Origin: an uncultured bacterium
Lineage (GTDB): Bacteria; Spirochaetota; Spirochaetia; B11-G9
Assembly (NCBI GenBank): GCA_965371875.1
Contig: CBDVAD010000001.1
Coordinates: forward strand, 1-39,639
Length of the DNA: 39,639 nucleotides
Reading direction: 5' to 3'
The notes below the pieces were generated by a model, which did no database searches, had not been told where the DNA came from, and worked only from the letters and a program-made list of their open reading frames with translations. Positions within the stretch are counted from its first letter, which is position 1. Each line of letters begins with the position of its first letter. Below are positions 1,479 to 38,800 of this stretch, one piece after another. The position numbers and the translations under genes are program-made.

Positions 1479-2426
1479 TTATTTTAAAATATCCATAAGC
1501 ACATCTTTTGATTCAGTAAAAAGAATCTCATCCAGAGCAAGATCCAGTTTGCCCTTGTTTTCTATCTCCATAATCAATAATCTGTCATCCTCAGAAATAC
1601 CGAATTTTCGTGAAATTTGGTTAATAAGAATATCCTTTTTTTCAAATAAGATACCTTTTTCCATCAATTTGTCTGCAGTAGTCATCAAATTCTCCCTGGC
1701 TCTGCCATCTGTTATTTCTATACATTTGAGAGCTGTATCCACAGTTATCTCTGTTGTTGAAAAAAGATAACGTAATACACTTTCCAGAAACCTGAGCCCT
1801 TCTTCTTCCCTATAGTACAATCTACCAATATTTATGATATCTTTCAAATGTGTAACAAGCTTTTTCTCATTAAATATGTTTTTCTCCATTAACAGTCCTA
1901 TCTCAATAGCTGCCCTTTTAAATGTACCATCTTTTATCTGGCTATCTGTATAGGATGACAGGTCTGTCAGCAGATATTCGAAATTCGGTACAAACCTGAA
2001 TAGCCAGTTATCTTTACTATTAAAGTAATCACTCATTTCTCTTTTCTTCCATCCGGATCTGCCATGATAGATAATCATAGGGATAATAAGCTGAAGATCA
2101 ATATCCTGCTTGATATTGGACTCCCATATATTCAGCATATACCTTAATAATTGGAAATGAATATATTTTACAGGATAGCTTTTATGTTCAAAAAGGAGGG
2201 AGATTTTTATCTTTTCTCCTCCCTTTAAACTGCATGAGTAGACAATGTCTGAAAAATACTCATCCAGCTTCTCATCGGTATAGTTGCTTGTATCAAGTTT
2301 AAGTGATTCCCTGATTATTCTATTTTTAATTTCAACAGGAAATGCTCCATTAATAAAATCCAGAGCATTCTCTCTAACGGAAAACAATTCTTTAAAAAAT
2401 TTGTCATGGGGGTTTTGTACTTTCAT
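1479..2426 (-). CDS. Rpn-family recombination-promoting nuclease / putative transposase (PD-(D/E)XK, YhgA-like)
   Basis: 315-aa ORF. The N-terminus 'NPHDKFFKELFS...ALDFINGAFP' and 'DIVYSCSLKGGEKIKISLLFEHKSY' (D...E-x-K core) are typical of the Rpn/Transposase_31 family. Confidence 0.85.
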   Translation of the reverse strand: MKVQNPHDKFFKELFSVRENALDFINGAFPVEIKNRIIRESLKLDTSNYTDEKLDEYFSDIVYSCSLKGGEKIKISLLFEHKSYPVKYIHFQLLRYMLNIWESNIKQDIDLQLIIPMIIYHGRSGWKKREMSDYFNSKDNWLFRFVPNFEYLLTDLSSYTDSQIKDGTFKRAAIEIGLLMEKNIFNEKKLVTHLKDIINIGRLYYREEEGLRFLESVLRYLFSTTEITVDTALKCIEITDGRARENLMTTADKLMEKGILFEKKDILINQISRKFGISEDDRLLIMEIENKGKLDLALDEILFTESKDVLMDILK

Positions 2427-2725: not shown

Positions 2726-3580
2726 CTAAACCATCGTATCCTCACCAACACTACCGGCTTTGTCCTTAATATATTTGCTGAAGGAAATCTTTGGAACTGA
2801 TGTAGGAGGTTTTGCTTTGACGGTTATCTCCTCTCCTGTTTCCGGGTGCCTGATTATCCGTGCTTTCTGGGCCTCTTTCTTTTTTAATGAAAGACGCCCA
2901 ATTCTGCCAAGAGGAACACTCTCTCCCAGCATCATCCCTGTTTCGATGAGCAGGGTGTAATCATCCAGAATCTCTTTAGCCAGAGCCCCTGTTATGTTGT
3001 ACCTCTTGGCAATGTACCTGGTCATGGATTTGGAGGTAAATTGTTCCGGTACACTTGTTTTATCTATATGAATACTTCTGTTTATCTTCATGAAACCGTT
3101 GGTAAGAAAAATTGTCCCTTCCCTTATTCGCTCTTTCTGGTTTGCTGTATCAACAGAGGCATCGCATACGGCAATCATATAGGCTGCTGAAGTCTGTTTC
3201 AGTTGACCTGCAGAGAATCTGACAGCCTCGCCAATACGAACGCCTCCTGCAAGATCTGTATCAACAATTGATATCGTTTTAGGAACATCACTTCTCAGGT
3301 GTATACTTGCGTACTCAACTTCCCTTGCTTCCTCTTTAGGCCCGATGCTGACAATAGAACCTGAATAGGTCATAATAATCATCCCTCTTTGATCACCTGC
3401 CTCAATACCATCGACAATATTCATGTTTAAAGTTCTGGTCTGCTGTTTAAAAAGATTACATTTTCTATCCCATATATCTGCCAGTAGATTACGGAATTCT
3501 TTATTGTCAGGCATTTCTGAAGATCTGATAAGCGATTCCATATGAGATTGAATTCTTTGTGGCAATTCATTAAATGTCAT
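2726..3580 (-). CDS. Fusion protein: uncharacterised ~170-aa N-terminal domain + C-terminal HU/IHF-type DNA-binding domain
   Basis: 284-aa ORF. The C-terminus 'VPLGRIGRLSLKKKEAQKARIIRHPETGEEITVKAKPPTSVPKISFSKYIKD' fits the HU/IHF arm (R-x-G-R-N-P-x-T-G-E-type) pattern. The N-terminal domain is paralogous to the product of 3743-4273. Confidence 0.8.
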   Translation of the reverse strand: MTFNELPQRIQSHMESLIRSSEMPDNKEFRNLLADIWDRKCNLFKQQTRTLNMNIVDGIEAGDQRGMIIMTYSGSIVSIGPKEEAREVEYASIHLRSDVPKTISIVDTDLAGGVRIGEAVRFSAGQLKQTSAAYMIAVCDASVDTANQKERIREGTIFLTNGFMKINRSIHIDKTSVPEQFTSKSMTRYIAKRYNITGALAKEILDDYTLLIETGMMLGESVPLGRIGRLSLKKKEAQKARIIRHPETGEEITVKAKPPTSVPKISFSKYIKDKAGSVGEDTMV

Positions 3581-3742
3581 GGTTTTATCCCCCCTGTTAT
3601 CAGATGCTTAATAGCTCTGAATTATTTGCATATTTATAGTATATCACAAATATTATCAAATAATACCGAAAAAAATGGTTATTTTTGGAAAAGTGCATTA
3701 TATTCCAATGTATTGAAGAGAATTACCATTGGAGGTATGAAA
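3581..3742. promoter_or_regulatory. Divergent intergenic region, presumed bidirectional promoter/operator
   Basis: 162-bp AT-rich spacer between divergent paralogues. It contains the inverted repeat TATTAT-caa-ATAATA at 3651-3665. GGAGG at 3731-3735 precedes ATG 3743. No promoter hexamers could be assigned confidently. Confidence 0.3.
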
Positions 3743-4273
3743 ATGGAAGAATATTTTGCAAAGGTATCAGAAGAGGTACAGAATCACTTGAAACAGCTTG
3801 TCGGTACAGTTAATCTGTCCGAAGGGGAAGATGCTTTGGAGATACTGGCCAAAGGGTGGCTGGATAAGGAAGAGAGTTTTATGTCCCAGATAAATGAAAG
3901 GAATTTGGAAGAGGCCCGTGACTTTTCTGTCGAAGAGCCCAGAGGCGGACTGTTAATGACATATTCAGGTTCGCTTTTGACAATTGGACCAATAGGTGAA
4001 GATGGGCGGAAAGTGGAATATGTAAGTGTTGGTCTTAGAACGGATGTTCCTGAGAGTGCTGAAAAGGAAGGATCTGTTATTAGCTCTGATATTTCAGTAG
4101 GTGGAGTGGTTGATTTTTTAGTTGGACCTATTAAGAAGAGTTCACCGGTTTATAAAATTGCTGTAGTCAGGGATGAGATGCCCATTGAAGAGGAAGAAGA
4201 ACTTCTTTCGGATGTCACTCAGATTTTAATGGATGAATTTGTTGAAGTTAACAAGACTTTGATAATCGACTAA
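3743..4273 (+). CDS. Uncharacterised protein, stand-alone paralogue of the N-terminal domain of the HU-fusion protein; first gene of the kinase/FHA operon
   Basis: Track ORF 3542-4273 is trimmed to the ATG (MEEYFAKV...) that lies 7 nt after GGAGG. It shares 'LMTYSGSLLTIGP..GRKVEYVSVGLRTDVP' with 'IMTYSGSIVSIGP..AREVEYASIHLRSDVP' of the divergent gene. Confidence 0.75.
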   Translation: MEEYFAKVSEEVQNHLKQLVGTVNLSEGEDALEILAKGWLDKEESFMSQINERNLEEARDFSVEEPRGGLLMTYSGSLLTIGPIGEDGRKVEYVSVGLRTDVPESAEKEGSVISSDISVGGVVDFLVGPIKKSSPVYKIAVVRDEMPIEEEEELLSDVTQILMDEFVEVNKTLIID

Positions 4274-4274
4274 A

Positions 4275-5282
4275 ATGTTTGTAAGCAGCCCCTTTTACAG
4301 AATTAAAGCTATTACGGAAAGAAGGAAAGTACCTGTTCCCGGGGATCTTAACGAGTCCCTGGAACGGGCCTCCTATGCCCTGGATAATGAGAATATGGAT
4401 ATTCGTCCCCGGGGAAGTGACGGCGCGCCAGGCGGTCTTATTCTTTTAGGAGCCCTTCCAACAATAATTGTTCCGGATCTTCATGCCCGTATTGGATATC
4501 TTAAGACACTTCTTGCCTGGAACCCTCCTGGTGAAAATTATACTGTCTATCAGGGGCTATCTTTAGGTAAGCTGCAGGTTGTCTGTGTTGGTGATGGCTT
4601 TCATGGCGAGGCAAGGGCAATTCGGCGTTGGCAAACAGCTTATGAAGAATTCTCCCAGGACTTTAAAAAGCATAAGGCCATGGATGAGGAGATGAGGGAA
4701 AGTATAGGTGTTATGATGATTGTCATGGAACTTAAATCAGCCTTTCCTGAGTATTTCCATTTTTTAAAAGGGAATCATGAGAATATTGCAAATGAGAATT
4801 CACTGGATAATAGATCTTTTATGAAATTTGTCTATGAAGGAGCTATGGTAACATCCTGGTTTCGTAAATACATGGGAGAGGAAACTTTTCTAAAATACTA
4901 TGAGTTTGAAAAAAAGCTGCCTGTATTTGCTGTAGGAAATCGTTTCTGTGTAACCCATTCCGAACCGAGAAAGCATTACTGGAAGCATGAACTGATAGAA
5001 GCTATGATTAACCGTAAAATAGTATTCGACCTGACCTGGACTGCAAATGAAGAGGCGGAAACAAACAGTGTTAATGGATACCTGGAGGAATACTTTCCAG
5101 GGGATCTTCATGCCAGAATGTTTGGTGGTCACAGACCGGTAGCAGGCTGTTTTAATACCCGGGCCGGGGGAAAATATTTGCAGATTCATAATCCCGGCAG
5201 GTACATAGCGGCGTACATCCGTGATATGGCGGATTTTTCCACAGAAAGAGATATTTTGATTCTACCCGAAAAGGGGGCATAG
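4275..5282 (+). CDS. Calcineurin-like metallophosphoesterase (probable Ser/Thr protein phosphatase)
   Basis: The ordered metallophosphoesterase motifs are all present: PDLHA (D-x-H), VGDGFHGE (GD), KGNHEN (GNHE), VTHSEP (H), GGHRP (GH). It starts 1 nt after the upstream stop and ends 4 nt before the kinase gene. Confidence 0.8.
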   Translation: MFVSSPFYRIKAITERRKVPVPGDLNESLERASYALDNENMDIRPRGSDGAPGGLILLGALPTIIVPDLHARIGYLKTLLAWNPPGENYTVYQGLSLGKLQVVCVGDGFHGEARAIRRWQTAYEEFSQDFKKHKAMDEEMRESIGVMMIVMELKSAFPEYFHFLKGNHENIANENSLDNRSFMKFVYEGAMVTSWFRKYMGEETFLKYYEFEKKLPVFAVGNRFCVTHSEPRKHYWKHELIEAMINRKIVFDLTWTANEEAETNSVNGYLEEYFPGDLHARMFGGHRPVAGCFNTRAGGKYLQIHNPGRYIAAYIRDMADFSTERDILILPEKGA

Positions 5283-5286
5283 CCAG

Positions 5287-6924
5287 ATGGCAAAATTACC
5301 GGAAAGTATAGGTAAGTATAAAGTTGAGGCTCTTGTTGCGAAGGGGGGCATGGGCGCAGTCTATAAGGCTATCCATCCAACATTGCACAGGCCTGTAATA
5401 ATAAAAAAGCTGACTCTTAGAGGACGGAAGGATATAAATGAACGTTTTAAAAGGGAAGCACGTATTCTTATGGATTTTCGGCATGATGGTGTCGTGGATA
5501 TGTATGATCACTTTAAATTGGGATCATCGTATTATATTGTTCTTGAGTTTGTAGATGGATCATCACTGGAAGATGTTATAAAAAAGCAGCGGTATCTGGA
5601 CAATGGTACAGCAGCTTATATTCTCTATTATACTGCCATAGCACTGCACTATGCTCATGAAAAAAAAGTTGTTCACAGAGATATAAAACCAGCTAACCTC
5701 CTGTTATCAAAGGCAGGGGAGATTAAACTTGTTGATTTCGGTATTGCCGTTTCTGATGAAGATGCTGATGAAGGACTCACCAGGGATGGAATGACTCTGG
5801 GAACGCCCAGCTACATGGCACCGGAACAGTTCCAAAATACTAAGAATGTTGACAGACGGGCTGATATCTATTCTCTGGGTGTATTGGCATATGAGATGCT
5901 GACAGGGAAGAAACCTTTCCCTGGAGGGTTCAGCTCCGAACTTATGAACAGTATCCAGAAAGGTAAATATCCAAATCCGCGAAAATTCAATCCTGGCATT
6001 CATTCTGTTCTTCTCCGTTTTATCAGAAAATCAATGAAGCCGAATACAGATCGTCGTTATAAAAGCCTGGTCCCGGTAATCGAAGAACTTGAACGATTTC
6101 TTAAGGGCTATGAAAAAGAAGTACTTACCAGTATAGTCGCCGATCTGGCGACAGGGAAGGAACCGGAGAAACCGAAATACAAGATAAAAAGAGGTTCTTT
6201 TATAAAAAATTTGATACTGTCTGTTGTTGTAATCGCAATATCTCTGATCGGGATTTTTGACTATCTTACTGGTTATCACAATGTGATATTTCATGGAGAT
6301 TCATATGGGTCTGTAATTTTCCTTGCCAGAACTCCGGTCGGTTTCCAGCCATGGTATAAGATATTTATAAAAGCCGATATTTTTCAGGATGATGATAATC
6401 TTATACCGAATGTTCCTGATAAACGGATTATTTTTATAAAAGTAAGGGAAGATAGAGGGGATGGTTCATATCTGTTTCAGTCACTTCCGGTTTATCTGAC
6501 CGAGGGCCTGTACAGGGCAAAGGTTGAGATTGAAGATGAACTTACCTGGCATTCCTTTATAGTTCTATCCAGACAGCAGCAGAAACAGGATTCACAAACA
6601 AGCAAAGGTAAGATTGTTGTCTCCGGCGAATTTCAGGAGACACCTTCTTTTCTTTCTACTAAAATAGAAGTTTCAGATATACTAACAGGAGATCTTATAG
6701 AGAAAGGAATCACTGTTTCTATATTACACAAAGGGATATGGATAGATTTGGAAGAGTCAGAATCTCTGTTTACTGGTGGAATCCACAAGTTTCGAATTCG
6801 GCATGAGGATTATAATACAAAGATTTTTTCTCTTCTGATCAGAGAAAATCAGGATACTCTTATTATAAAAGCAGGTCTTGTTCCACTCTCAGGAATCGAC
6901 AGCCTGGAACCTGGCTCGGAGTGA
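5287..6924 (+). CDS. Hanks-type Ser/Thr protein kinase with one TM helix and a ~220-aa extracytoplasmic C-terminal region
   Basis: Kinase motifs GKGGMGAVYKA (P-loop), VIIKK, HRDIKPANLL, DFGIA and GTPSYMAPEQ. TM segment ILSVVVIAISLIGIF. Confidence 0.95.
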   Translation: MAKLPESIGKYKVEALVAKGGMGAVYKAIHPTLHRPVIIKKLTLRGRKDINERFKREARILMDFRHDGVVDMYDHFKLGSSYYIVLEFVDGSSLEDVIKKQRYLDNGTAAYILYYTAIALHYAHEKKVVHRDIKPANLLLSKAGEIKLVDFGIAVSDEDADEGLTRDGMTLGTPSYMAPEQFQNTKNVDRRADIYSLGVLAYEMLTGKKPFPGGFSSELMNSIQKGKYPNPRKFNPGIHSVLLRFIRKSMKPNTDRRYKSLVPVIEELERFLKGYEKEVLTSIVADLATGKEPEKPKYKIKRGSFIKNLILSVVVIAISLIGIFDYLTGYHNVIFHGDSYGSVIFLARTPVGFQPWYKIFIKADIFQDDDNLIPNVPDKRIIFIKVREDRGDGSYLFQSLPVYLTEGLYRAKVEIEDELTWHSFIVLSRQQQKQDSQTSKGKIVVSGEFQETPSFLSTKIEVSDILTGDLIEKGITVSILHKGIWIDLEESESLFTGGIHKFRIRHEDYNTKIFSLLIRENQDTLIIKAGLVPLSGIDSLEPGSE

Positions 6925-6934
6925 AGGAGATAAT

Positions 6935-7819
6935 ATGACAGTATTTTACAGAAAGATTTTTATGACATTGATAGGTTTAATAGCAGGTATGGCGAGTTGG
7001 GGGGTAATTGAAATTCTTCTTTCTTATAGTTATTTGATCAGTCGCCACCTTGTTTGGAATAGTCTTGCCGGGGCTGCAATGGGTCTGATTTTCGGTTTTT
7101 TCTTCGGCAGTGCAGAGGGGATAATGTTTTCAGATATAAAGAGGTCAATCAGAGGTGGTCTTACAGGGGCAGGCTTAGGACTGGCCGGTGGCATAGGAGC
7201 TGTAGTTCTGGCGCAGGGGCTTCTATACTGGATTGGGAATACCGAGCTGCTTGCATCCTCTTTTTCAGATTCATTTATCGCCCCTCTATCCAGAGCTTTG
7301 GGCTGGGGTCTTCTTGGTATGATTATAGGCGCTGTCGATGGTATTAGACGTGGTTCCGGGAAGCGGATTGGTATCGGTATTTCAGGAGGTCTTATTGGCG
7401 GTTTGTTTGGAGGATTATTACTGGAATTTCTTACAGGAGTATGGACAAACAGTTATGCGGCAAGAGGAATTGGTATTGTAGTTCTTGGTGTCGGGATTGG
7501 TCTCTTTTTTACTATCTTTGAGTATTCAAGGGCCTACGGCATTATCAGGATTCTTACAGGGACCCTGCGTGGTAAAGAGTATCTCCTTATTACAAAGAAA
7601 ACAAAAGTCGGCTCATCCATGGGCTCGGATATATCTCTTGGAAATTACACAGGAGTTGTAAAGAACCATGCAGTTTTAACTGCCAATAGGGATGGAGTTA
7701 TTATTAAAGATAATAAAGGGGCTGTTCTTGTAAACGATCAACCGGTAGGGGAGCAGGAATTAAAATATGAAGATGTTATCCAGATAGGAGATGCCAAACT
7801 TTTTTATCTGCCGAAATAA
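6935..7819 (+). CDS. Gly-rich polytopic membrane protein with C-terminal FHA domain
   Basis: The start is moved to the ATG after GGAGA (track ORF starts at 6878, inside the kinase gene). There are several Gly-rich hydrophobic segments. The C-terminus 'VGSSMGSDISLGN...NHAVLTANRDGVIIKDNKGAVLVNDQPV...IQIGDAKLFY' is FHA-like. Confidence 0.85.
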   Translation: MTVFYRKIFMTLIGLIAGMASWGVIEILLSYSYLISRHLVWNSLAGAAMGLIFGFFFGSAEGIMFSDIKRSIRGGLTGAGLGLAGGIGAVVLAQGLLYWIGNTELLASSFSDSFIAPLSRALGWGLLGMIIGAVDGIRRGSGKRIGIGISGGLIGGLFGGLLLEFLTGVWTNSYAARGIGIVVLGVGIGLFFTIFEYSRAYGIIRILTGTLRGKEYLLITKKTKVGSSMGSDISLGNYTGVVKNHAVLTANRDGVIIKDNKGAVLVNDQPVGEQELKYEDVIQIGDAKLFYLPK

Positions 7820-7836: not shown

Positions 7837-7889
7837 ATGGGCGACACGAAGTGTCGGGGCTGGTCACAACTTCGTTGCTGCTCGCCCAT
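7837..7889. other. Intra-operon structured element (Y-shaped hairpin)
   Basis: An outer stem pairs atgggcga (7837-7844) with tcgcccat (7882-7889). It encloses cgacac-gaag-gtgtcg and caac-ttcg-ttg hairpins. The element is GC-rich relative to its surroundings and lies between the stop at 7819 and the start at 7932. Confidence 0.4.
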
Positions 7890-7931
7890 GCAACCTGGGA
7901 ACCCATTCTTAGTCGTAAGGGAGGATTTGAA

Positions 7932-9335
7932 ATGAATAATAACCTATTATTAAAAGCAGTAATAAATGCTGCAATATTGGGACTTATGGTTATGCCAGCC
8001 ATTATTTCAGCTCAAAATATTACAATTACACAGCTTGATTCAAGAGAACTTCTTACATCTTCCAGGATTGACTGTTATTTGAGTATTACGGACAATCAGG
8101 GAGAACCTTTGGAAGATGTTAAGACTGATTTAATCAGGATGAAACATGAAACAGAAGAAGGTATGGATACTGTGGAAATTCTGGATATCCAAAGAAATAA
8201 TTCAGCAGAAGGGGAGATCACATTTCTTTTAGTACTGGATAATTCGGGAAGTATGTATGAACCAGTTGGAGATGGAATGGATGGGGATCGAATGGATCAT
8301 GCAATAAGAGCTGTTAAAGAGTTTCTTGGCAGTCTTGATAAACAGAATACCAGAGTTGGTTTGGCTGTTTTTAATACAAAATACATATTACTTGTTGAAC
8401 CTGACAAGAATATAAAAGCCATAGAAGAGGCTCTTGAAAGAATAGAAAAACCTGACAGTAAGAATGCGTATACCGAACTGTTCTACTCCATTAGTCAGGC
8501 TGCGATGGATATGGCACGATATCGCGGACGAAAAGCAATAGTTCTTCTTTCGGATGGAGAAAACTACCCATACTTCACTATGTCCGGAAACCTTCACCCG
8601 GATTTGGGAGAAAATCTCTATCTTCCTGACGATGGATTGGAACCTTTAAAACGGGAAGGAGTGACCCTTTATGGTATTAATTTTTCAACCGAGAAAGATA
8701 AGTCTCTGGCATCAATCAGTATTGAATCCGGCGGAACAATGTATGACGCAATCACAGATGACGAGTTGTCAGGAGTCTATGGCCGGATTAAAAACCGGAT
8801 AGAAAAGGAATACAGGGTTACTGTCAGAGCTCCTCTTGTTTTCCTCGGATCACCAAAAATCAGCGCTGAATATAAAGCTTCCGATGATACAAAAAGCTAT
8901 TATGCCAGGCCCCTTATGGGGACTCCGGAAAGAGACTACCTCTTTCTGTCACTGATGATACTGCTGCTCTCTTTCGTAATATGGGTTATTTTAATGCTGA
9001 TCCGCTTTGAAAAAACTGCAGACCATGCCGAGCTTTCAATGCTGCCTATGGGAAGGGGTAAACCTTTACAAAGAACCATAGCTCTGACATCTCAAATGAC
9101 GGTTATTGGCGGTTCAGCCCAGGCAGATTTTACTGTAGCAGGAATCCCGAGTCTGAAGGAATCTCATGCTACTATTGTGCAGGATGAAAAAGCAGGCACA
9201 TTTACACTGGTTTCCGACGAGGAAGTACGGGTCAATAACAGGATGACTAAAAACCGAAAACTAAATCCTGGTGATGTTATAAATATAGAGGGAGCAACAA
9301 TTGTTTTTGATGCACCTGAAAACAGTAAACAGTAA
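7932..9335 (+). CDS. Secreted/membrane-anchored vWA domain protein with TM helix and C-terminal cytoplasmic FHA domain
   Basis: The start is taken at MNNNLLLKAV... (signal-like), preceded by GGGAGG. MIDAS motif 'LLVLDNSGSM'. TM segment LFLSLMILLLSFVIWVILMLI. The C-terminus 'MTVIGGSAQADFTV...SHATIVQDEKAGTFTLVSDEEVRVNN' is FHA-like. Confidence 0.9.
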   Translation: MNNNLLLKAVINAAILGLMVMPAIISAQNITITQLDSRELLTSSRIDCYLSITDNQGEPLEDVKTDLIRMKHETEEGMDTVEILDIQRNNSAEGEITFLLVLDNSGSMYEPVGDGMDGDRMDHAIRAVKEFLGSLDKQNTRVGLAVFNTKYILLVEPDKNIKAIEEALERIEKPDSKNAYTELFYSISQAAMDMARYRGRKAIVLLSDGENYPYFTMSGNLHPDLGENLYLPDDGLEPLKREGVTLYGINFSTEKDKSLASISIESGGTMYDAITDDELSGVYGRIKNRIEKEYRVTVRAPLVFLGSPKISAEYKASDDTKSYYARPLMGTPERDYLFLSLMILLLSFVIWVILMLIRFEKTADHAELSMLPMGRGKPLQRTIALTSQMTVIGGSAQADFTVAGIPSLKESHATIVQDEKAGTFTLVSDEEVRVNNRMTKNRKLNPGDVINIEGATIVFDAPENSKQ

Positions 9336-9386: not shown

Positions 9387-9725
9387 ATGGACGAGACAAT
9401 TTACATGTCCAGTAATGTTGGCAAGAGACTCGAAAAGGTGAAAAAGGCGGAACACCATTTTCTTGTGTTTAACGGGAAGAAGATTGCTCTTGTCAGCAAA
9501 ATTATAATCGGTCGTTCCCGGTCCTGCGATGTTGTATTAAACGACGCTCTTGTTTCCCGGAAACACGCTGTTATCCAGAAGATTAAGGATGAATATTTTA
9601 TTAAGGATTTAAACAGCAAAAACGGGACCTATGTAAATAAGAAGAAAGTCCCTGATAGGCAATATATCAGGCTGGAAAAAGCGGATTCCATTAAGATTGG
9701 GAAAAACACCATACAACTGCAGTAA
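9387..9725 (+). CDS. Small stand-alone FHA domain protein
   Basis: 'IIIGRSRSCDVVLNDALVSRKHAVIQKIKDEYFIKDLNSKNGTYVNKKKV' is a canonical FHA core (G-R...S-R-x-H...N-G). Confidence 0.9.
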   Translation: MDETIYMSSNVGKRLEKVKKAEHHFLVFNGKKIALVSKIIIGRSRSCDVVLNDALVSRKHAVIQKIKDEYFIKDLNSKNGTYVNKKKVPDRQYIRLEKADSIKIGKNTIQLQ

Positions 9726-29882: not shown

Positions 29883-29895
29883 GAGCCTATAATTA

Positions 29896-32800
29896 ATGAA
29901 TAATATAAGAAAAAATATATCTTTTACAATTCTGGTTCTTTTTATAATGTCAATTGTACCCTTTCCCCTTCTTGCAGATAATGCAGAAGTCTATAAAGAT
30001 ATCTTTACCCATAAGACTCCGGCAGAGAGATATATTCCTGTTGCAGTGGTAGCATCACCCTCTGAAAACGAGGTTCCTGAATCTGCTGCAGAGACTCAGA
30101 CTCTTGCGTCTCTACAGAAGCAAAGACCTGTCTCTGATTCTCCTGTAGAGTTCTATTCCCAAAAAATAACACCGGATGTAGAAAGTATTCTTGTATACGA
30201 TGGGATAAAATTAGAGATTCCTGCCGGAGCGGTAGATAAAGAGGTAACCATAGAGATAATAAAGCTTAAATCTGCCCCTCGTGTTAACGAAACAATAAGA
30301 AATGTAACAACAGGTGCAGAATCTTATCGTTTTTTACCGGACGGTATTCATTTTAAAAAAAATATCAAAATTTCAATACCCTTTAGTAAGGCTCTTCTCG
30401 AATCGGAAACAGCCCTTTCCAATCTGTTTACATATTTTTTTGATGAAAACAGCAATACCTGGGAACGCCTTCCTCGGATAGAAATCGATAAAGAGAAAAC
30501 TGTTGTTGTCAGTTTGACAGACCATTTTACAGATATGATAAACGGAACCCTTAAAATGCCGGAAAGTCCCGGCCCGGTTAACTTCGATATTAACAGCATA
30601 AAAAACCTGGAAGCTGCTAACCCGTCTTCCGGAGTAATGAACCTGAAAGGTTTTACACCAGATTCACAGGGAAGCGCATCTTTTCAGATAGCTCTGAATC
30701 TGCCGCAAGGACTGGGAAGCGCATATCCGAACCTTTCTTTAAGCTACAACAGCGACAGTCCAAACAGCTGGATGGGAAGGGGCTTTGATATTTCCGTTCC
30801 ATCTATTACAACGGATACAAAATTTGGTCTTCCTGACTACGACGATAGTGACACCTATATTCTCGGTGGTGAAGAACTTGTTCTTATATCCGGTTCCGGT
30901 TTCCCAAAATCCTATCGTCCACGTATAGAGAAAGAGTTTAAAAGAATAATAAGAAAACTCGAAGGTGGAGTTGATTACTGGGAAGTAACGGACAAAAATG
31001 GAAGAGTTCAGACATTCGGTACAGAGGAAGGATGGATTGGCCCTGATAGGAATAACCATACAAAAACCTATACCTGGTATTTAACAAAAGAGACAGACAC
31101 CAATGGAAACTTTGTAAGTTATATCTATGATTATGACAGTGATAATAAATATACCTATTTAAAAGAGATCCATTATTCAGGAAATAATAATGTCAGTACC
31201 AGTAATTCCGGTCCCTATAAGGTTGTTTTTAATACGTCTGAATCCAGACCAGACAGAAGAATAGATGCAAGGGGTACCTTTGTATCCAAACTGGTAAGAA
31301 GACTCGACAGTGTTGATATCTATTACAATACTGAAGTTATTCGTACCTATGAGTTTACATATGAACAAAATGAGTTTGGACAAACGGTATTAAATAGTTT
31401 TGCTGAGCTTGATGGCAGTGGGAATGAGTTTTATGGCTATGGGTTTGATTATAATAAATTATCTATCCATGATGCCGGAACTGGTATTATTGCCTATGAT
31501 GGGTTTGGAGATGAAACAATTGAATGGGGAGCTGTTTCCGGCCCCACTTTCCCAGGACTCAACCAGACTCGTACCTTCGGAATTGGCGCCAGTTTATATT
31601 TAGGAGTATCTGTCGATATTTTTAAAAGAATAAGATGGTTTAAATGGGGGTGGAGACGTCTTTTTTCATTGGGAGTAAGCGGAGGGGTTAATTATTCAAA
31701 TACTATTACAAAATCAACTTTGTTGGATATTAATGGAGATAACCTGCCTGATGCAGTATGGAAAGATGGCGGAGTTTTAAGAGGATATCAGAATACAGGA
31801 AATGGATTTGATACAAGTACTGACAATGATATTTCTCTTCCTGGTTTACCTGGGCTTTTAAACAGAAATAGTCAGTTGGGATACAATCTGGGGCTTTCAG
31901 TAACTGCTGGAGTGCTCAGCGGTTCTTTATCTATGCAGAACAACTGGATGAAGAGTAAGAGTTCGTTTAATGACATAGATGGTGATGGACGAATAGATTA
32001 TCTTATTGCAGACAGCAGTAAATATTACAGAAACACAACAGACAGTTTTACTCCGACAGACTATGGGACATATGTAAGTCTGACACAATCTGAGAATATA
32101 AACGAGGATGATTATCTTCGTACATATTACAGTCAGGAACCGCTTCGGAAATGGAAGGCATATACAGGTGGGAGAATAGAGATCAGTCAATCCATGAACC
32201 TTCTGGACAGTAGTCTTGTTTCTGAAGATGGTGTTGCAGCAATAACATATCCGGATGGTGGATATCCTGAATTCAGTATTCATTTGAGTTCAGATCAGTC
32301 TGAGGGTTCAGATACCCGTTCCTACAATATTGAAGAAGGGGACGAGTTATTTTTTCATATGGATGCCGGAATTGATTCAAGGGAAGATGATATTAATTGG
32401 GACATTAATATAGCCTACACTGATATAAACTATTTTGAAAAAATGGATGATCCCTCAATTATAAAACTTAAAGAACTTTATTATAACTCTCTGCCCGATG
32501 ACAGACTTGATAGATTTTATAATTCAGCTTATGTGCAATATGAGGATGATCCGCCCAAAAAGAGATGGGAATATACTCTTAAATCCGACTGGAGAAACTA
32601 TCTGAATAGTACTTCACTTGCAGCTGTTATTGAATATGGACTATTTGTTCCAGCAAGAATATCGGAAGATATATTTACCGGAATTTTTAATAGAGCGAGT
32701 GATACTGAAATTATTTATACAGATAATAATAATAATTCTGATGATAAAATTATCCCTGGAGAGAAGGCTGCTCTTATAGATTCTTTTTTGTACAGACCCG

Positions 32801-35800
32801 AATTTAGAGATTTTATCCGGCTGAACAATGGTGCTGATAATGTAGTAAGAAACTATCTTCTTTTGGAATCGAGCCTGTCTCAGAGACATAGCCTGTTTTA
32901 TTATACTGACTTTTCAGGAAGCAGTGTTTTGCCTGAAGAGTCCGGCGGAGCCAGAAGTTTTCTTAAATCGGCTCCTTTGATAAGTATTGAACCTAAAATA
33001 GATATAACTGAAGATAACATGACCCCTGGAGCTGAACTTTACAATGGGGAGATTCTTCTTGATAGGATTTATAATGAGACAGGAGATGAAGTTGTTGCGA
33101 CTTTAAGTCTGGTTCCTGACAATGGTGCTCTGCAGCTTGTTAGTACAGGCAGTCAGGGTTCGGGTGTTATTATTGGATCTGTGGTAACTGAATCTGCCGG
33201 TGGAATAAGTGCTTCTTTTTTACGGAACGGAATAAAACACAGCTATAGTTTAAGCAATCCTGAAAGTGTTCTAACCGGTTTGCCCTCGGATATATATGAT
33301 AGTGAAGTTCTTGATGCAGTTACATCCGGTTATGACTTTGTATATTTCCCTTCTCATACCAGTTTGAGTATTTCCGATTATAACACGATTTATGGAACAA
33401 TAGATGTCCAGGAGGATAAGAACTTTTTTCAGACAGTTTATGATCGATATCCGGAAGTATCCGATATCGAAGAGTACATACTTAAAGATCCAATGTTGCC
33501 GGAAGAGCTTGATCATCTGAATGTTATACTGCCTGGAGTTAATTTACCTGCAAATTATACCTTGCTGCCTCTTTTAGAGTATGCATCTGTCTACAATTCT
33601 GCATCTACTAAAGATAAAGTCTTCCTTGAAGAAATTTACTCACGATCCCCTGAAATACCTCCCATAGAAAGATATGATCTTGTATCAGGTATAAGCATCC
33701 CGGATGAAACACGTCTTGTCCTTATTTTTGATACTTTAAGTGATGACGGGGTTTCCATACATGATAATCCATTGTTTTTATCCGGAAACACAAACAGTGT
33801 CGGAATTATTGCTTTAAGTGAAGCTGAATATACAGATTATTTTGAAGAAAAGGCTGATATTCAAAGTCTTTTTAACGAAGTTGTAAATGATGATTCAGAT
33901 ACCTTTTTTATTCTAAAAAATAATATTACAGAAGCAGAAAAGAATGTATTTGAGACTGCATGCCGTCAATATTTAAGGGATGAAATTGAATTTCCTTATT
34001 ATGAATACAATGAGGCTGAAGGGCTGTTTACCATAAGATCCGGATTAAACAGTACTGAGTTAACTGAGATATCCACTCTCTTTTCAGGACTGGATTTAAG
34101 TGTATTTACAACTCTTAACAGAAGCTTACGGTATTATTCCAATGCAGTGCTCCCTGTTGTTTATGAAAGTGCAGCTGCAGTTTCAAGTGTGGATAATCCT
34201 GTTCCGGAAGGAACCGGCCCCCTGAACCATACAAATCCAGGTACTGTCAGCATTCCATATTTTGATAACCTTGGGAGAAGTTCATATTTAATTAAGTATA
34301 TTCATAACTATTATTCAGAATCTGACTATAGTTCAGAAAATCTAATAAATTATCCTGAAAATATATATAACGAGAGTGCTCTGATTGGTACTGAACTTAT
34401 TGAAAATACTCCTGAGGACAGAATACCTGATAGTTTTGAGATATTCAGCGGAGGAGTAGCCGGTTGGTATTACGGTGTCTGGACTGGCTATCATGGTCTT
34501 TTCCAAAATGAAAAGCTCCACGCCATTCCTCCTGAGAACGGTCCGGGAGAAGTAATCCGTCCGAAATACTTTACTCCTATGAAACAGAATATAAAAGATA
34601 ATAATGATCCTATTAAAACTTCCGTGGGGAGAGATCAGATTTTTATACTGGATAAGTGGAGCCTTATTATGGATGCAAGTTCGTATACGGAATCTGACTT
34701 CACTGAAGAGGGAGAGCCGGTAAGTGTAAGCTACAACTTTGCACCTGCAATAAAAGGAAACCTGCTGCACGCTGACAGAAATGGAGGAGATACATATTTT
34801 AATGTTCCGCGAGGGAGTAAACCCATGGAGGGTGGAAAGATAGGATATTTAAGTTCTGGAAAATCTACTTCAAGAGATATAAAAGGAAGTCTGGATTTTG
34901 GTGTTGGTTCTTTAAGTTTATCACTAAGTGAAAATGAAGGAACATCATGGCAGTACCAGAATGTAATGGATATAAACGGTGATAGGTATCCTGATATAAT
35001 CTCCTATACTTCAGATAAAGATGGTTCAGGTAGTTTTTCAGTTGTAGAAGGAAATGGAACCGGATTTGGTTCTGTAGTTGATTATTCAAGTCCCGTCAAG
35101 CATCTTTCGTATAGTGAGAATCTGACCTACGGTTTCGGAGCTTCTCCCGGCAGTCATTTCCCTGGGATTGAACCGGCAATGTCACCTTCCGGCAGGGTGA
35201 AATCGACAGGAATTGGAACCCCTGACAGTGGATCGGGAGGGGGATTTGGATTCTCCGGTTTTAACGGAACAGCGGGTGTTTCCTTTAATACCCAGGGATT
35301 TACTGATGTCACAGGAGACGGACTTCCTGACCATATTCAGAGGAGTGGATCAGGGGTGTACAATGTAGCTATTAATAAGGGTGATAATAGTTTTGCAGAT
35401 CCAGCTGTTTCTTTTGGCAGCGGGATAGATGAGGATCTTTATGAAGGTACTGTGATTGCTTCCGGTTTATCAAAAACTGCAAAGGGTATAAGCTTTAGTA
35501 ATTCCGGTAGTCTTGGTACTGGTGTATCAGTATCGATAGCAAGTGTAGGTTTTAATGCCTCTGCTAATCGAACTCTGTCGCAGCTTATGGATATTAATGG
35601 CGATGGGTTGTCCGATCAGGTAGTTAAAAAACCTGCTGAGGATTTCTTCCGGGTACGATTTAATATGGGGGATGAGTTTGCTGATGATGAAACAAGAATA
35701 TACCGTCCGGATTGGGATCCTGATGGATTTCCAGATATAACAAGTGCCCTTGAATCTATTATTGGTGAAAATTCTGGTTCTTTTAGCAACCTGGATTTAC

Positions 35801-38800
35801 CTTTAGTGGGAAAACTTGATCTTACCCCTTCTGCTCTTCCTTCCAATGCAGAAGATAATCCATTTTTTTCCATTATCAATCCTCTTGGAATTGATGATGC
35901 CATAAGTTATACAAACGGTATATCAATCAATCTGGGAGCCAGTCTGCATTTAAATTTTAAAGCCTACCTGGTATTACTCAGGTTTGGGTTTGATGTAATT
36001 CCAGGTATAAACGGGTCTTATGCTGTGAGTACAACCAGCCTTTCCATGAAGGATATTAATGGAGATGGTCTTCCAGATCATGTTCTTAAAAGAACTGGAA
36101 GTGATGAGTTAAAGATAAAAATCAATAGTATGGGAATGACAGGCCTCCTTAATAAAATAACCATGCCCACAGGTGGAAACATGGACCTCGAATACGGCCG
36201 AAGGGGAAACACTGTCGACATGCCTCAGAACCGATATGTCCTTACTAAAGTAACAAAGAACGACGGTTATCAGGATGATCCGACTATGGCAGGAGAACAC
36301 AGTTACACGGAAACCTTTGACTACAAAGATGGATACTATGACAGAGGAGAGAGGAAATTCTACGGTTTTCATGAAGTATCAGTAACCAAAGGAGACGGAT
36401 CTGTTACAACAACAATCTATAATAATGATAATTACTATACAAAAGGACTTGTTTCTTCAACAGTAATAGAAAATGAAAACGGAATAACTTTCCTTGAACA
36501 GGAGAACAGCTACAGCCTGAGAAGTATTGGAACCTATACTGACGGAGACGTAAAGTACCCATACCTTTCTACGGAAATAAGCAGAACCTTTGATGTATCA
36601 GATTCTGATGTAATCGAAACAGAAAAACAATACTTTTATGACAGCCTGGGGAATGTTATTCGTATGGAAGATACAGGAATCTACTCAGATCCGGATGATG
36701 ATATAACATTGAATATAATCTATTCAGATGACCATAACAGTAATTATTTAATGAGTCTTCCGACAAGTCTGACAGTAAAAGATTCGACCGGTGATATAAT
36801 AAGAAAAAGAGAAGGAACTTACGACGGAAACGGAAATCTTACTGCCTTAAAAAGCTATTACAACGATTATGACTTCTCTGAATATACCTTCGGATATGAT
36901 GCTAATTATGGAAACTTAAGCTCTGTAGAAGATCCCCTTGGTTATAGAAAAGAATATACTTATGATAATGAAGTTCACCGATATGTAACAGAGATAGATA
37001 CTTCAAGTATTTATGGAGGAGATTCATATACCTCCACTCTAAGCTATGACTACAGATATGGCGTTGAAACATCCCAAACCGATAGTAACGGAAACACCCT
37101 GTCTAAGGAATATGATAATTTTGGACGGCTTAAAACCATAATAAGTCCATACGATACAGGAACGGTTAAAGCAGTGGAATACTCATACCTTACAGATACA
37201 TTTCCCTGGAAGGCACTGACAAAAAACAAGATAAGTTTCGATGCAGCAGACGTAAGTACCATGGACACTTATGTAATAATTGACGGCCTAAACAGAATAA
37301 TAAGCACAGCCAAAGAGGGAGAAGTCTACAATGAAAGTGGAAACCTGCATGGCTGGAACAAAAGCGGATATGTAAGCTATGACAACAAAGCACGACCAGT
37401 TGAAGAGGGCCAGACAGTCTTCGAAGAAACAAGCACTTCACCTGAAGTAGAGAAGACAGCATTACGTCCAACACTAAAAACATACGACGCACTGGACAGA
37501 ATACTAACCATAACCTTTCCTGACGATTCTTTAATAACAAAGATCTATTCTGTAGAGGGAAACATAACAAAAGAAACAGTTACAGATCCCCTTGGTAACA
37601 TAACGGAAACTTATAAAGACATTAGAGGAAATATTGTAAAATTAGAGAAAAAGGACTCAATAGGAACACTCCTGACAGAATCCTTTTACAGCTATAATGT
37701 CCTGGGGGAACTATTAAAAGTGCTGGATGCAAAAGGAAGTGAAGTTACCTTTACCTACGACATTCTTGGAAGAAGACTGACATTGCAAAGTCCGGAAACA
37801 GGATTAACAGAGTTCGAGTATGACAAAGCAGACCACCTTATAAGAAAGGTGGATGCAAACCTTAGAAATGACGGAGCATCCATAAACTACATCTACGGTA
37901 CCCTTGGAAGAATAGAAAAGATAGACTATCCATTTATGACCGATACAAGCTACACTTATGGTGCACAGGGAGATGACTACAACAGGGCAGGCAGAATAGT
38001 AAGAATAACGGACGAATCCGGAAGCACAGAAAACTACTATGGAGAACTCGGAGAAACAACCAGTGTAACAAAAACAATAGGCCGGCTTACACCTTTAGCA
38101 GATGACAAGAGTGCCAGCTTTAACTACACCTTCGACTACCAGGGAAGAATGGAAGCCATAACCTACCCCGATGGAGAGGTTGTAAGTTACGAGTACAACA
38201 GAGGCGGAGAAGTAGAAAAAGTAAGCAGTGTCCACAACGGTCTTTCTACAACCTACATAGAAAACATAGGTTACGACGAATACGGCCAGAGAGCATACAT
38301 AAAATATGGAAACGGAATAGAGACAAAGTATACCTACGATGAGGACCGGCGCTGGCTTAACAATATAGAAACCAAAAGTACTCTTAATACCTTACAGGAC
38401 ATTGATTACACCTTTGACAAAACAGGTAATATCCTGGCAATAGTAAACATATCGGGAAGGTATACAACGAACCAGAACTATGAGTATGACGGACTATATC
38501 AGCTGACAAAGGGAGAAGGATACTTCGAAGACAGGGAGTACGGCTTTACTAGTGGAACCTCCAGGTACATCCAGAACTTCAGCTATGACAGCACAGGAAA
38601 TATCCTCTCAAAGACAAGCAGTAACATGGTTACCCCTTCCGGCGGAGTAAGTGCTCTTAACTACAATTACAGCTATACATATTATACTGATAAACCAAAA
38701 CAGGCAGAAATAATTGGAAATTTATGGTATCTTTATGATGGTAACGGGAATATAATAGAAGAACGTGCAGGCGGCCATAGTACTGAAGGTATACAGGGCA

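Follow-up and report, generated by a model that had tools for sequence, protein, structure and literature searches.

In a 39,639-nucleotide stretch of DNA from an uncultured bacterium of the Spirochaetota (contig CBDVAD010000001.1; the window, in what follows, means this whole stretch), two genes lie back to back between positions 2726 and 4273 and encode related proteins, which we call A and B. Both proteins contain a domain of about 170 amino acids, which in A precedes a DNA-binding domain of the HU/IHF type and in B stands alone. Gene B is the first gene of an operon for a putative phosphatase, a Hanks-type Ser/Thr kinase, and proteins with FHA and vWA domains. The features of the pair, in order of position, are listed here.

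2726..3580, minus strand: gene A, 284 amino acids; shared domain at the N terminus, flexible linker, HU/IHF domain at the C terminus
2759..3037, minus strand: HU/IHF domain of A (residues 182–274, PF00216), with the arm motif R-H-P-E-T-G-E
3065..3580, minus strand: shared domain of A, about 172 amino acids (residues 1–172), delimited by BLASTP against B
3356..3370, minus strand: TYSGS motif of A (residues 71–75)
3581..3742, no strand: divergent spacer, 162 bp, 28% GC compared with 38% in the window
3743..4273, plus strand: gene B, 176 amino acids; shared domain alone; first gene of the operon
3959..3973, plus strand: TYSGS motif of B (residues 73–77)

The mechanically called open reading frame (ORF) of gene B starts further upstream, at 3542. 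We set the start codon at the ATG at 3743 because most close homologues are 176 amino acids long and because of the placement of a GGAGG at 3731–3735, 7 nt ahead of this ATG. With this start, the back-to-back layout across an AT-rich spacer of 162 bp is as the original prediction, which was made from the sequence alone, had described it.

Genes A and B encode ancient paralogues

BLASTP aligned A with B at an E-value of 1e-26, with 50 identities in 172 columns (29%), 56% positives, and one gap. The match spans residues 3–173 of A and 5–176 of B, counted from the ATG at 3743; the B query was the 178-residue translation from the ATG at 3737, in which the matching residues are 7–178. The two products thus align across their shared domain, as predicted, and the core strings on which that prediction rested proved exact, 21 of 37 positions being identical. 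Traces of the paralogy persist in the DNA, where 3281–3373 and 3956–4051 form inverted repeats that are 70–72% complementary and cover the core from TYSGS to DVP.

A word-indexed search returned 132 homologues of B, mostly of 176 amino acids and free of any Pfam domain, and 196 homologues of A, mostly of 281–300 amino acids and carrying PF00216. In the source annotations that we saw, B is a “hypothetical protein” and A mostly a “HU family DNA-binding protein” or “nucleoid DNA-binding protein.” All named sources of these homologues are Spirochaetia, including Breznakiella homolactica, Spirochaeta thermophila, Salinispira pacifica, and Sediminispirochaeta.

A and B fall into separate clades. Over the shared domain, identity averages 0.46 among A sequences, 0.50 among B sequences, and 0.34 when an A sequence is compared with a B sequence. 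At 27 positions, the same residue is at least 80% conserved in both families, and fixed differences between A and B occur at only 2 positions of the domain. The duplication is accordingly an old one, and both paralogues have retained one functional constellation. B is the more widespread of the two and the more tightly linked to the operon, and it did not arise by recent truncation of A.

The C-terminal domain of A is a HU/IHF domain

Residues 182–274 of A matched the Pfam family Bac_DNA_binding (PF00216) with an E-value of 1.6e-11 and 44.7 bits (cut-off 22.4), and all 18 A-family members of alignment A1 matched the same family. A Foldseek search of the AlphaFold2 model of A against the PDB returned only HU/IHF structures among the 50 matches listed, at a probability of 1.00 and target-normalised TM-scores of 0.66–0.87; HU, IHF, and Hbb structures are represented at 0.69–0.87, and the matches include 1p71_A, 1ihf_A, and 2np2_A. 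The fold so matched is that of HU, in which a two-helix stalk is combined with a beta-sheet and extended arms. The arm sequence RHPETGE of A aligns to RNPKTGE of IHF-alpha, indicating that the intercalating proline is retained, and across the A family the arm reads R(H/N)P(E/A)TGE. A ends in a genuine HU/IHF domain, in agreement with the fold originally assigned to this part of the protein.

B heads a conserved kinase, FHA, and vWA operon

The genes that follow B on the plus strand are given below.

4275..5282, plus strand: PPP-like metallophosphoesterase, divergent, a putative Ser/Thr phosphatase (Metallophos E=0.0018, below the cut-off)
5287..6924, plus strand: Hanks-type Ser/Thr kinase with a transmembrane segment (Pkinase E=2.4e-51)
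6935..7819, plus strand: multi-pass membrane protein with a C-terminal FHA domain (Yop-YscD_cpl, FHA-like, E=8.5e-11)
7851..9335, plus strand: protein with signal peptide, vWA domain, transmembrane segment, and C-terminal FHA domain (VWA_2 E=1.6e-13, VWA E=1.4e-11)
9387..9725, plus strand: small stand-alone FHA protein, 112 amino acids (Pfam FHA E=8.6e-24)

A Hanks-type kinase domain and FHA-type domains in three proteins are thus encoded together, and the gene order confirms B as the first gene of a phosphatase-kinase-FHA-vWA operon, with a phosphatase assignment that is weak at E=0.0018. The phosphatase gene begins 1 nt past the stop codon of B. Its product is not a PP2C, the usual phosphatase of such modules, and gives a weak Metallophos/PPP-like match; GNHE and DxH are readable in it, and its PDB matches to PP5 and BSU1 around GNHE are non-significant. 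The C-terminal 245 amino acids of the kinase have no Pfam match. The vWA-FHA protein likely starts at the ATG at 7929, and its C-terminal 99 amino acids match FHA at E=1e-4 and 23.1 bits (cut-off 20.7).

To survey the locus, we scanned one genome per species with a B-only alignment, which found a B relative in 193 genomes, and kept the best 80 loci, all labelled Spirochaetota. Every protein of the window was compared with these loci by tblastn; 78 of them were informative in that upstream DNA was present. B leads the genes for the phosphatase, the kinase, the transmembrane FHA protein, and the vWA-FHA protein in 78 of the 80 loci. The phosphatase is missing from 8 of the 80, and even in these B lies directly upstream of the kinase.

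Gene A is divergent from B and adjoins it in 61 of the 78 informative loci, with a median spacer of 129 bp (range, 69–525), so that the divergent arrangement is conserved in other genomes of different species. In two loci (L056 and L069), A lies at the 3' end of the operon in convergent orientation, and in 15 of the 78 it was not seen within the available upstream DNA. The divergent slot upstream of B is filled by a small FHA gene instead of A in three of these 15 loci (L013, L039, and L040). This small stand-alone FHA gene is mobile within the cluster: apart from the three loci in which it takes the slot of A, it was noted in L021, L056, L065, and L077; it adjoins A in some loci and is the last gene of the operon in the window.

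In many species, the locus is present as a stable block in single copy. A reading as anti-phage defence was rejected, as the PADLOC models were matched by the generic kinase domain only; A, B, the phosphatase, and the FHA and vWA proteins matched no PADLOC defence model.

The shared domain has an invariant set of mostly polar residues

When 1.84 billion representative proteins were scored with a profile built from the A and B families, only 224 of them reached E≤0.001. All those that carry an organism name are from Spirochaetota, and they show essentially two architectures, about 176 amino acids alone and about 280–305 amino acids with HU. The joint alignment on which the following is based holds 49 members, 31 of the B family and 18 of the A family.

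The domain family had not been recognised in the original prediction, and our searches of Pfam, NCBIfam, PDB sequence profiles, and, with Foldseek, the PDB and BFVD gave the same outcome. B had no Pfam match at E≤1 and none in NCBIfam. Across all 49 members, again at E≤1, Pfam families other than HU matched at most two members each, with a best E-value of 0.025. The best E-value in the PDB sequence-profile search with the shared domain was 0.57, which is not significant. Foldseek with the model of B gave a best E-value of 0.026 in the PDB, with query-normalised TM-scores of at most 0.25, and of 0.004 in the viral structure library BFVD (TM-score 0.23); among the 50 PDB matches listed for the model of A, none falls on its N-terminal domain. 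The START/helix-grip, PH-like (Rpn13 PRU, REC114), and Sm-like folds were discarded as candidates, being at noise level with TM-scores of at most 0.25. We regard the shared domain as an uncurated alpha/beta domain that has been seen only in Spirochaetota.

Fifteen positions are invariant in the joint alignment (B numbering): H15, K42, F46, T73, S75, G76, S77, R89, Y93, R99, D101, P103, S134, F166, and N170. The A family (alignment A3) shows no variation at S73, G74, and S75 and at least 90% conservation at T71 and Y72, and across both families the loop motif reads (M/L)TYSGS.

The AlphaFold2 model of B is confident, with a predicted local distance difference test score (pLDDT) of 88.3 and a predicted TM-score (pTM) of 0.83; it begins with three helices, continues with seven strands, and ends in a long helix. 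In the model of A (pLDDT 87, pTM 0.63), the N-terminal domain keeps this overall order of helices, strands, and a long final helix, and a flexible linker follows at residues 171–180 (pLDDT 58). TYSGS forms a tight turn in B, linking strands 2 and 3 (residues 69–73 and 78–81) within a block of pLDDT 93, and a turn in A, linking the strands at 67–71 and 76–79; its pLDDT exceeds 90 in both models.

One B-family member, P0266, carries a low-complexity insertion of about 70 residues, rich in Gly, Ser, Ala, and Asp, in the loop between strands 3 and 4, right after TYSGSLLALGP, from which we conclude that this loop tolerates big insertions. Two distant outliers, P0387 and P0374, were set aside as uninformative. 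P0387 has unannotated neighbours, with a PIF1-like helicase a few genes off on the longer of its two contigs, and P0374 lies on a contig of 694 bp.

A natural fusion and the possible function of the TYSGS turn

A divergent copy of the shared domain occurs in P0318, a protein of 701 amino acids encoded by a real gene that is present on 8 contigs from several samples (L081–L083, 8001–10106). P0318 is built, in order, of a signal peptide, a vWA domain, a transmembrane segment, the shared domain with the motif MTLSGS, and a helical tail, so that the shared domain takes the place that FHA holds in the vWA protein of the window. Its gene lies directly downstream of genes for a transmembrane FHA protein and a HAMP-adenylate/guanylate cyclase, and no Hanks kinase gene is adjacent. 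This architecture, taken with the transmembrane FHA neighbour, places the shared domain at the cytoplasmic face of a transmembrane FHA/vWA pair. R99, D101, and P103 are absent from the P0318 copy, and T-x-S-G-S is kept. A 7TMR-DISM/SpoIIE phosphatase is encoded nearby.

The hydroxyl-rich loop had been proposed as a phospho-acceptor for the neighbouring kinase. In such a scheme, the kinase would phosphorylate T73, S75, or S77 of (M/L)TYSGS, the phosphatase would reverse this, and FHA domains would read the mark, which would switch the DNA binding of A or tether A and B to the membrane complex. The invariance of T73, S75, G76, and S77 in both families is consistent with this, as is the joint presence, in one operon, of genes for a kinase, a putative phosphatase, and three FHA domains. 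The tightest link of B is with the kinase, to which it stays adjacent in the eight phosphatase-less loci, and the exchange of FHA for the shared domain in P0318 is of the kind expected when interacting partners fuse. In mycobacteria, Ser/Thr kinases are known to phosphorylate HupB. The structural models argue the other way, since the motif is a tight, ordered beta-turn in both of them and not a flexible segment. Counting from T73, position +3 is always Gly, a position at which a hydrophobic or acidic residue is usual in FHA ligands; the motif belongs to a wider invariant polar set of the kind that is typical of a pocket; and the P0318 locus keeps T-x-S-G-S yet has no adjacent kinase. Phosphorylation of the turn looks structurally unlikely in the models; we do not favour it and judge the scheme as a whole improbable.

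The same polar set could instead serve ligand binding, with the shared domain as a sensor of a small molecule or second messenger, A as a one-component-style regulator with a HU output, and B as a ligand buffer or as the sensor of the kinase module; phosphorylation would then act elsewhere. Most of the invariant residues are polar or charged (H15, K42, T73, S75, S77, R89, Y93, R99, D101, S134, and N170), and the strand register would bring the TYSGS turn, E92/Y93, S95, and R99–P103 to the same end of the sheet. Both paralogues hold this constellation, and the gene for P0318 follows a cyclase gene directly. Two observations speak against a sensor: no known ligand-binding fold is alike (the best Foldseek E-value of 0.026 comes with TM-scores of at most 0.25), and the cyclase-linked copy in P0318 has lost R99, D101, and P103. 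The polar cluster fits a pocket for a ligand or phospho-ligand as well as it fits a phospho-acceptor; we are nevertheless doubtful of the sensor reading.

A conserved block in the spacer tracks the HU domain

Three candidate elements were located in the spacer between A and B.

3638..3647, minus strand: GTGATATACT on this strand, a candidate extended −10 for gene A, from a reading against the consensus
3650..3692, plus strand: conserved block ATATTATCAAATAATACCGAAAAAAATGGTTATTTTTGGAAAA, candidate A binding site; it overlaps the B promoter in the upstream and spacer portion of the latter
3699..3704, plus strand: candidate operon −10 (TATATT), inferred

The block, aTtTTTTCAAAaatttcCGaAAAaAATGGTTtTTTaTGGAAAA, is about 40 bp long and occurs in exact register in 24 of 62 spacers between A and B. 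It is made of phased A/T tracts with GG steps 9–10 bp apart, and a TAT-rich hexamer lies 6–8 nt past its TGGAAAA in every block-bearing locus. The position of the candidate operon −10 was fixed with the help of L020, which has only 33 nt between the block and the start codon of B; the −35 position reads TGGTTA, a poor match to the consensus. To the left of the block, AGTATAWCAC is kept in several relatives of the window (e.g. L001–L007), and on the minus strand it reads as a candidate extended −10 (TGnTATACT) for A. The block would fill the shared upstream region of two back-to-back candidate promoters. Phased A-tracts give intrinsically bent DNA, which is a preferred substrate of HU/IHF proteins, and the A/T tracts with their GG steps every 9–10 bp lead us to predict that the block is intrinsically bent.

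Loci that carry the block range in B identity from 91% down to 49% and span two orders, with a Salinispira metagenome-assembled genome (MAG) in the Spirochaetales and Breznakiella in the Treponematales. The strict pattern occurs once per locus, in this spacer only and always oriented toward B; it was not found elsewhere in the 80 loci or in the 39.6-kb window. None of the 17 loci with A non-adjacent has it (Fisher p=0.001, ignoring phylogeny). Several loci without an adjacent A have a consensus TTGACA −35 upstream of B, whereas the −35 is poor in the block-bearing loci.

We then asked, locus by locus, how presence of the block relates to the identity between each protein and its counterpart in the window, and expressed the association as the area under the receiver operating characteristic curve (AUC).

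HU domain of A: AUC 1.000 over all loci, 1.000 excluding L001–L009
B: AUC 0.93 over all loci, 0.88 excluding L001–L009
N-domain of A: AUC 0.81 over all loci, 0.68 excluding L001–L009
Phosphatase: AUC 0.73 over all loci, 0.56 excluding L001–L009
Kinase: AUC 0.61 over all loci, 0.38 excluding L001–L009

The HU domain, measured against the copy in the window, separated the two groups of loci completely (n=58; phylogeny ignored): its identity is at least 55% in all block-bearing loci and at most 54% in all others. The tip of the arm differs in the same way, between RHPETG in loci with the block and RNPATG in loci without it. This covariation is suggestive, as it is the pattern expected of a DNA-binding domain and its site. 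The layout had been taken for the classic one of a regulator and its target operon; a unique conserved block that tracks HU identity lends indirect weight to this view, which has to be relaxed in one respect, namely that adjacency of A and B is not obligatory.

Some known elements were considered for the block and dismissed. By eye, the spacing does not fit a sigma-54 promoter (GG-N10-GC), and a sigma-28 promoter would lack TAAA at the −35 position. Against the IHF consensus WATCAANNNNTTR, the window has TATCAAATAATAC, a 7/9 match that is not kept across loci and on which we make no claim.

Two further arrangements were seen among the spacers. One block-bearing subgroup (L014, L018, L019, L026, L030, L041, L050, L053, L066, and L076) has a conserved palindrome, GCAGCTGC (CTGCGACTGCAG in L041), about 15–25 nt past the candidate −10, in the 5' leader of the B homologue. 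This palindrome is absent from the window's own clade; it might serve as a second operator or form a hairpin in the leader. Eight other loci (L031, L032, L037, L047, L051, L054, L058, and L065), most of them from MAGs with the label Treponema, Treponemataceae, or unclassified Spirochaetes, have spacers of only 69–72 bp without an A/T-tract block and with a conserved layout of their own, namely ATGACA, 17 nt, TACACT, and a Shine-Dalgarno sequence, from which it follows that the regulatory design of the pair was replaced at least once.

A proposed role for A and B

Our working proposal is that A is a DNA-binding output and autoregulator acting at the block, that the shared domain is a connector, and that B uses the same partner or ligand as A, probably as a competitor or partner; we put this forward tentatively, with confidence a little short of even. 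The shared domain would link A and B to a membrane module composed of the receptor kinase, the PPP-like phosphatase, two membrane FHA proteins, one of them with what would be a periplasmic vWA domain, and a soluble FHA protein. The HU/IHF domain of A, its proline-tipped arms intact, would bind and bend the block of about 40 bp between the two promoters, and A would in this way control its own gene and the operon led by B. B, which lacks a DNA-binding domain, would be co-produced with the kinase. It should bind the same partner or ligand as A because the same 27 conserved positions are kept, and it would most likely act as a competitor or partner of A, feeding back on signalling. The analysis shows the paralogy, the HU fold, the synteny, the restriction to Spirochaetota, the conserved block, and the covariation of the block with the HU domain; we infer that A binds DNA at the block, in which direction regulation runs, what the shared domain binds to, and that B acts as a competitor.

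Several points weigh against this proposal. A is not adjacent to B in 17 of the 78 informative loci. Both the covariation and the Fisher test ignore phylogeny, and the block-bearing loci are the half of the family nearer to the window. In 38 of the 62 spacers, the block is absent and other promoter layouts are found. The block could be just an unusually conserved promoter with an UP-like element, and HU proteins usually bind DNA without sequence preference. Finally, the shared fold has no recognisable neighbour and therefore leaves the biochemistry of the domain unconstrained.

Much of this would suit a different role for A, as a general nucleoid protein or a global effector of the kinase pathway, with adjacency reflecting shared function and the block serving as a promoter only. 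The usual lack of specificity of HU members (general knowledge; PMC5499826), the loci with A non-adjacent, including the two (L056 and L069) in which it lies 3' of the operon, and the resemblance of the A/T tracts, missing from most spacers, to an UP element all point in this direction. The block is nevertheless kept base for base over about 40 bp in two orders, well past the −35 and −10 hexamers, is unique to the spacer between A and B, and covaries best with the HU domain among the proteins of the locus. We consider a purely global role quite unlikely.

The connector proposal has a bolder form, in which the shared domain would be a new fold and the cytoplasmic output of a kinase/FHA/vWA complex, the HU fusion a signal-controlled DNA bender, and B a decoy. 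We regard this form as rather unlikely, if conceivable. If true, A would represent a new class of site-selective DNA-bending transcription factor, the spirochaete counterpart of a response regulator in Ser/Thr kinase signalling.

Other features of the window

To the left of the pair, two direct repeats of 77 nt, 90% identical, lie at 1176–1252 and 2462–2538, with a partial inverted copy at 1429–1454. They contain the hairpin GCCCCGAAGGGGC and flank a YhgA-like/Transposase_31 gene (1479–2426, minus strand), and the repeat is found three times in the related locus L001 as well. It looks like a lineage-specific repetitive extragenic sequence or the end sequence of a mobile element.

Directly past the stop codon of gene A, positions 2540–2725 are non-coding and have 62% GC in a contig of 38% GC. 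This segment holds an internal inverted repeat of about 55 nt (2627–2681), and its conservation in the corresponding position of L002 is about 70%. Either a structured element 3' of the gene or a leftover of foreign DNA could account for it. At gathering thresholds, Rfam found no family in the whole window, 2540–2725 included, and no tRNAs were found. Two hits from an E-value scan of 1100–2800 with Rfam, SNORA29 (inside a coding region) and Acido-Lenti-1 (E=0.06), were rejected as spurious.

At the other end of the window, 29893–39639 on the plus strand is a single ORF of at least 3,249 codons that runs off the end of the contig. Its N terminus resembles a signal peptide, and its coding strand is strongly A-rich (AT skew up to 0.34); the product is probably a giant secreted or surface protein.

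Comparison with known systems

How Hanks-type kinases of bacteria act on gene expression has, to our knowledge, been traced in only a minority of cases. In this locus, a candidate pathway is encoded in compact and conserved form, with a receptor kinase, phospho-readers, a dedicated DNA-binding protein, and an element of about 40 bp. Its carriers, about 190 species genomes with the label Spirochaetota, include cultured species, so that it is directly testable. It also brings together an uncurated domain family without a recognisable structural relative and the fusion of this domain to HU. We consider its significance moderate, not broad, the system being seen in one phylum only.

In the literature on FHA, vWA, and kinase proteins of spirochaetes and on the HU family of Treponema, we found no description of the A/B family; the shared domain, the HU fusion, and the conserved spacer element are undescribed in the literature searched. 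The HU-like protein TDE_2259 of Treponema (TrtA paper) differs from A in architecture, and the main text of a 2017 survey of HU superfamily architectures mentions neither “kinase” nor “FHA” (PMC5499826).

The operon itself is a known kind of module. Sulfolobus has ArnA (FHA), ArnB (vWA), the kinases ArnC/D, and PP2A, and Deinococcus has DRA0331–0334 (vWA, Ser/Thr kinase, FHA, and PP2C) (PMC7472852; bioRxiv 10.64898/2026.01.23.701218). As far as these accounts go, a kinase, a Ser/Thr phosphatase, FHA, and vWA are encoded together there as they are, with a putative phosphatase, in the window. The phosphatase of the Sulfolobus Arn system is of the PPP type, to which the putative phosphatase of the window has a weak match, and transcriptional control is the output of that system. 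The abstracts on the two modules name neither the shared domain nor its HU-fused form. The window operon differs from both in that its FHA and vWA proteins are membrane-anchored, in its three FHA domains, and in being headed by B and paired with A.

With the HU/IHF proteins, including the site-specific IHF and Hbb of Borrelia, A has in common the fold and the proline of the R-x-P-x-T-G-E arm, and its candidate target, like IHF sites, is rich in A/T tracts and probably bent. A adds to them an N-terminal domain of 172 amino acids, a 3-residue insertion in the arm, and its tie to a kinase operon.

A parallel for the pair is provided by Agrobacterium, in which TrlR and TraS, regulator paralogues of TraR without the DNA-binding domain, act as anti-regulators. 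Here too, one paralogue has a DNA-binding domain and the other does not, and a conserved core is present in both; this common core makes heteromers or competition for a shared ligand plausible for A and B. A difference is that B is an ancient duplicate and not a protein recently cut from A.

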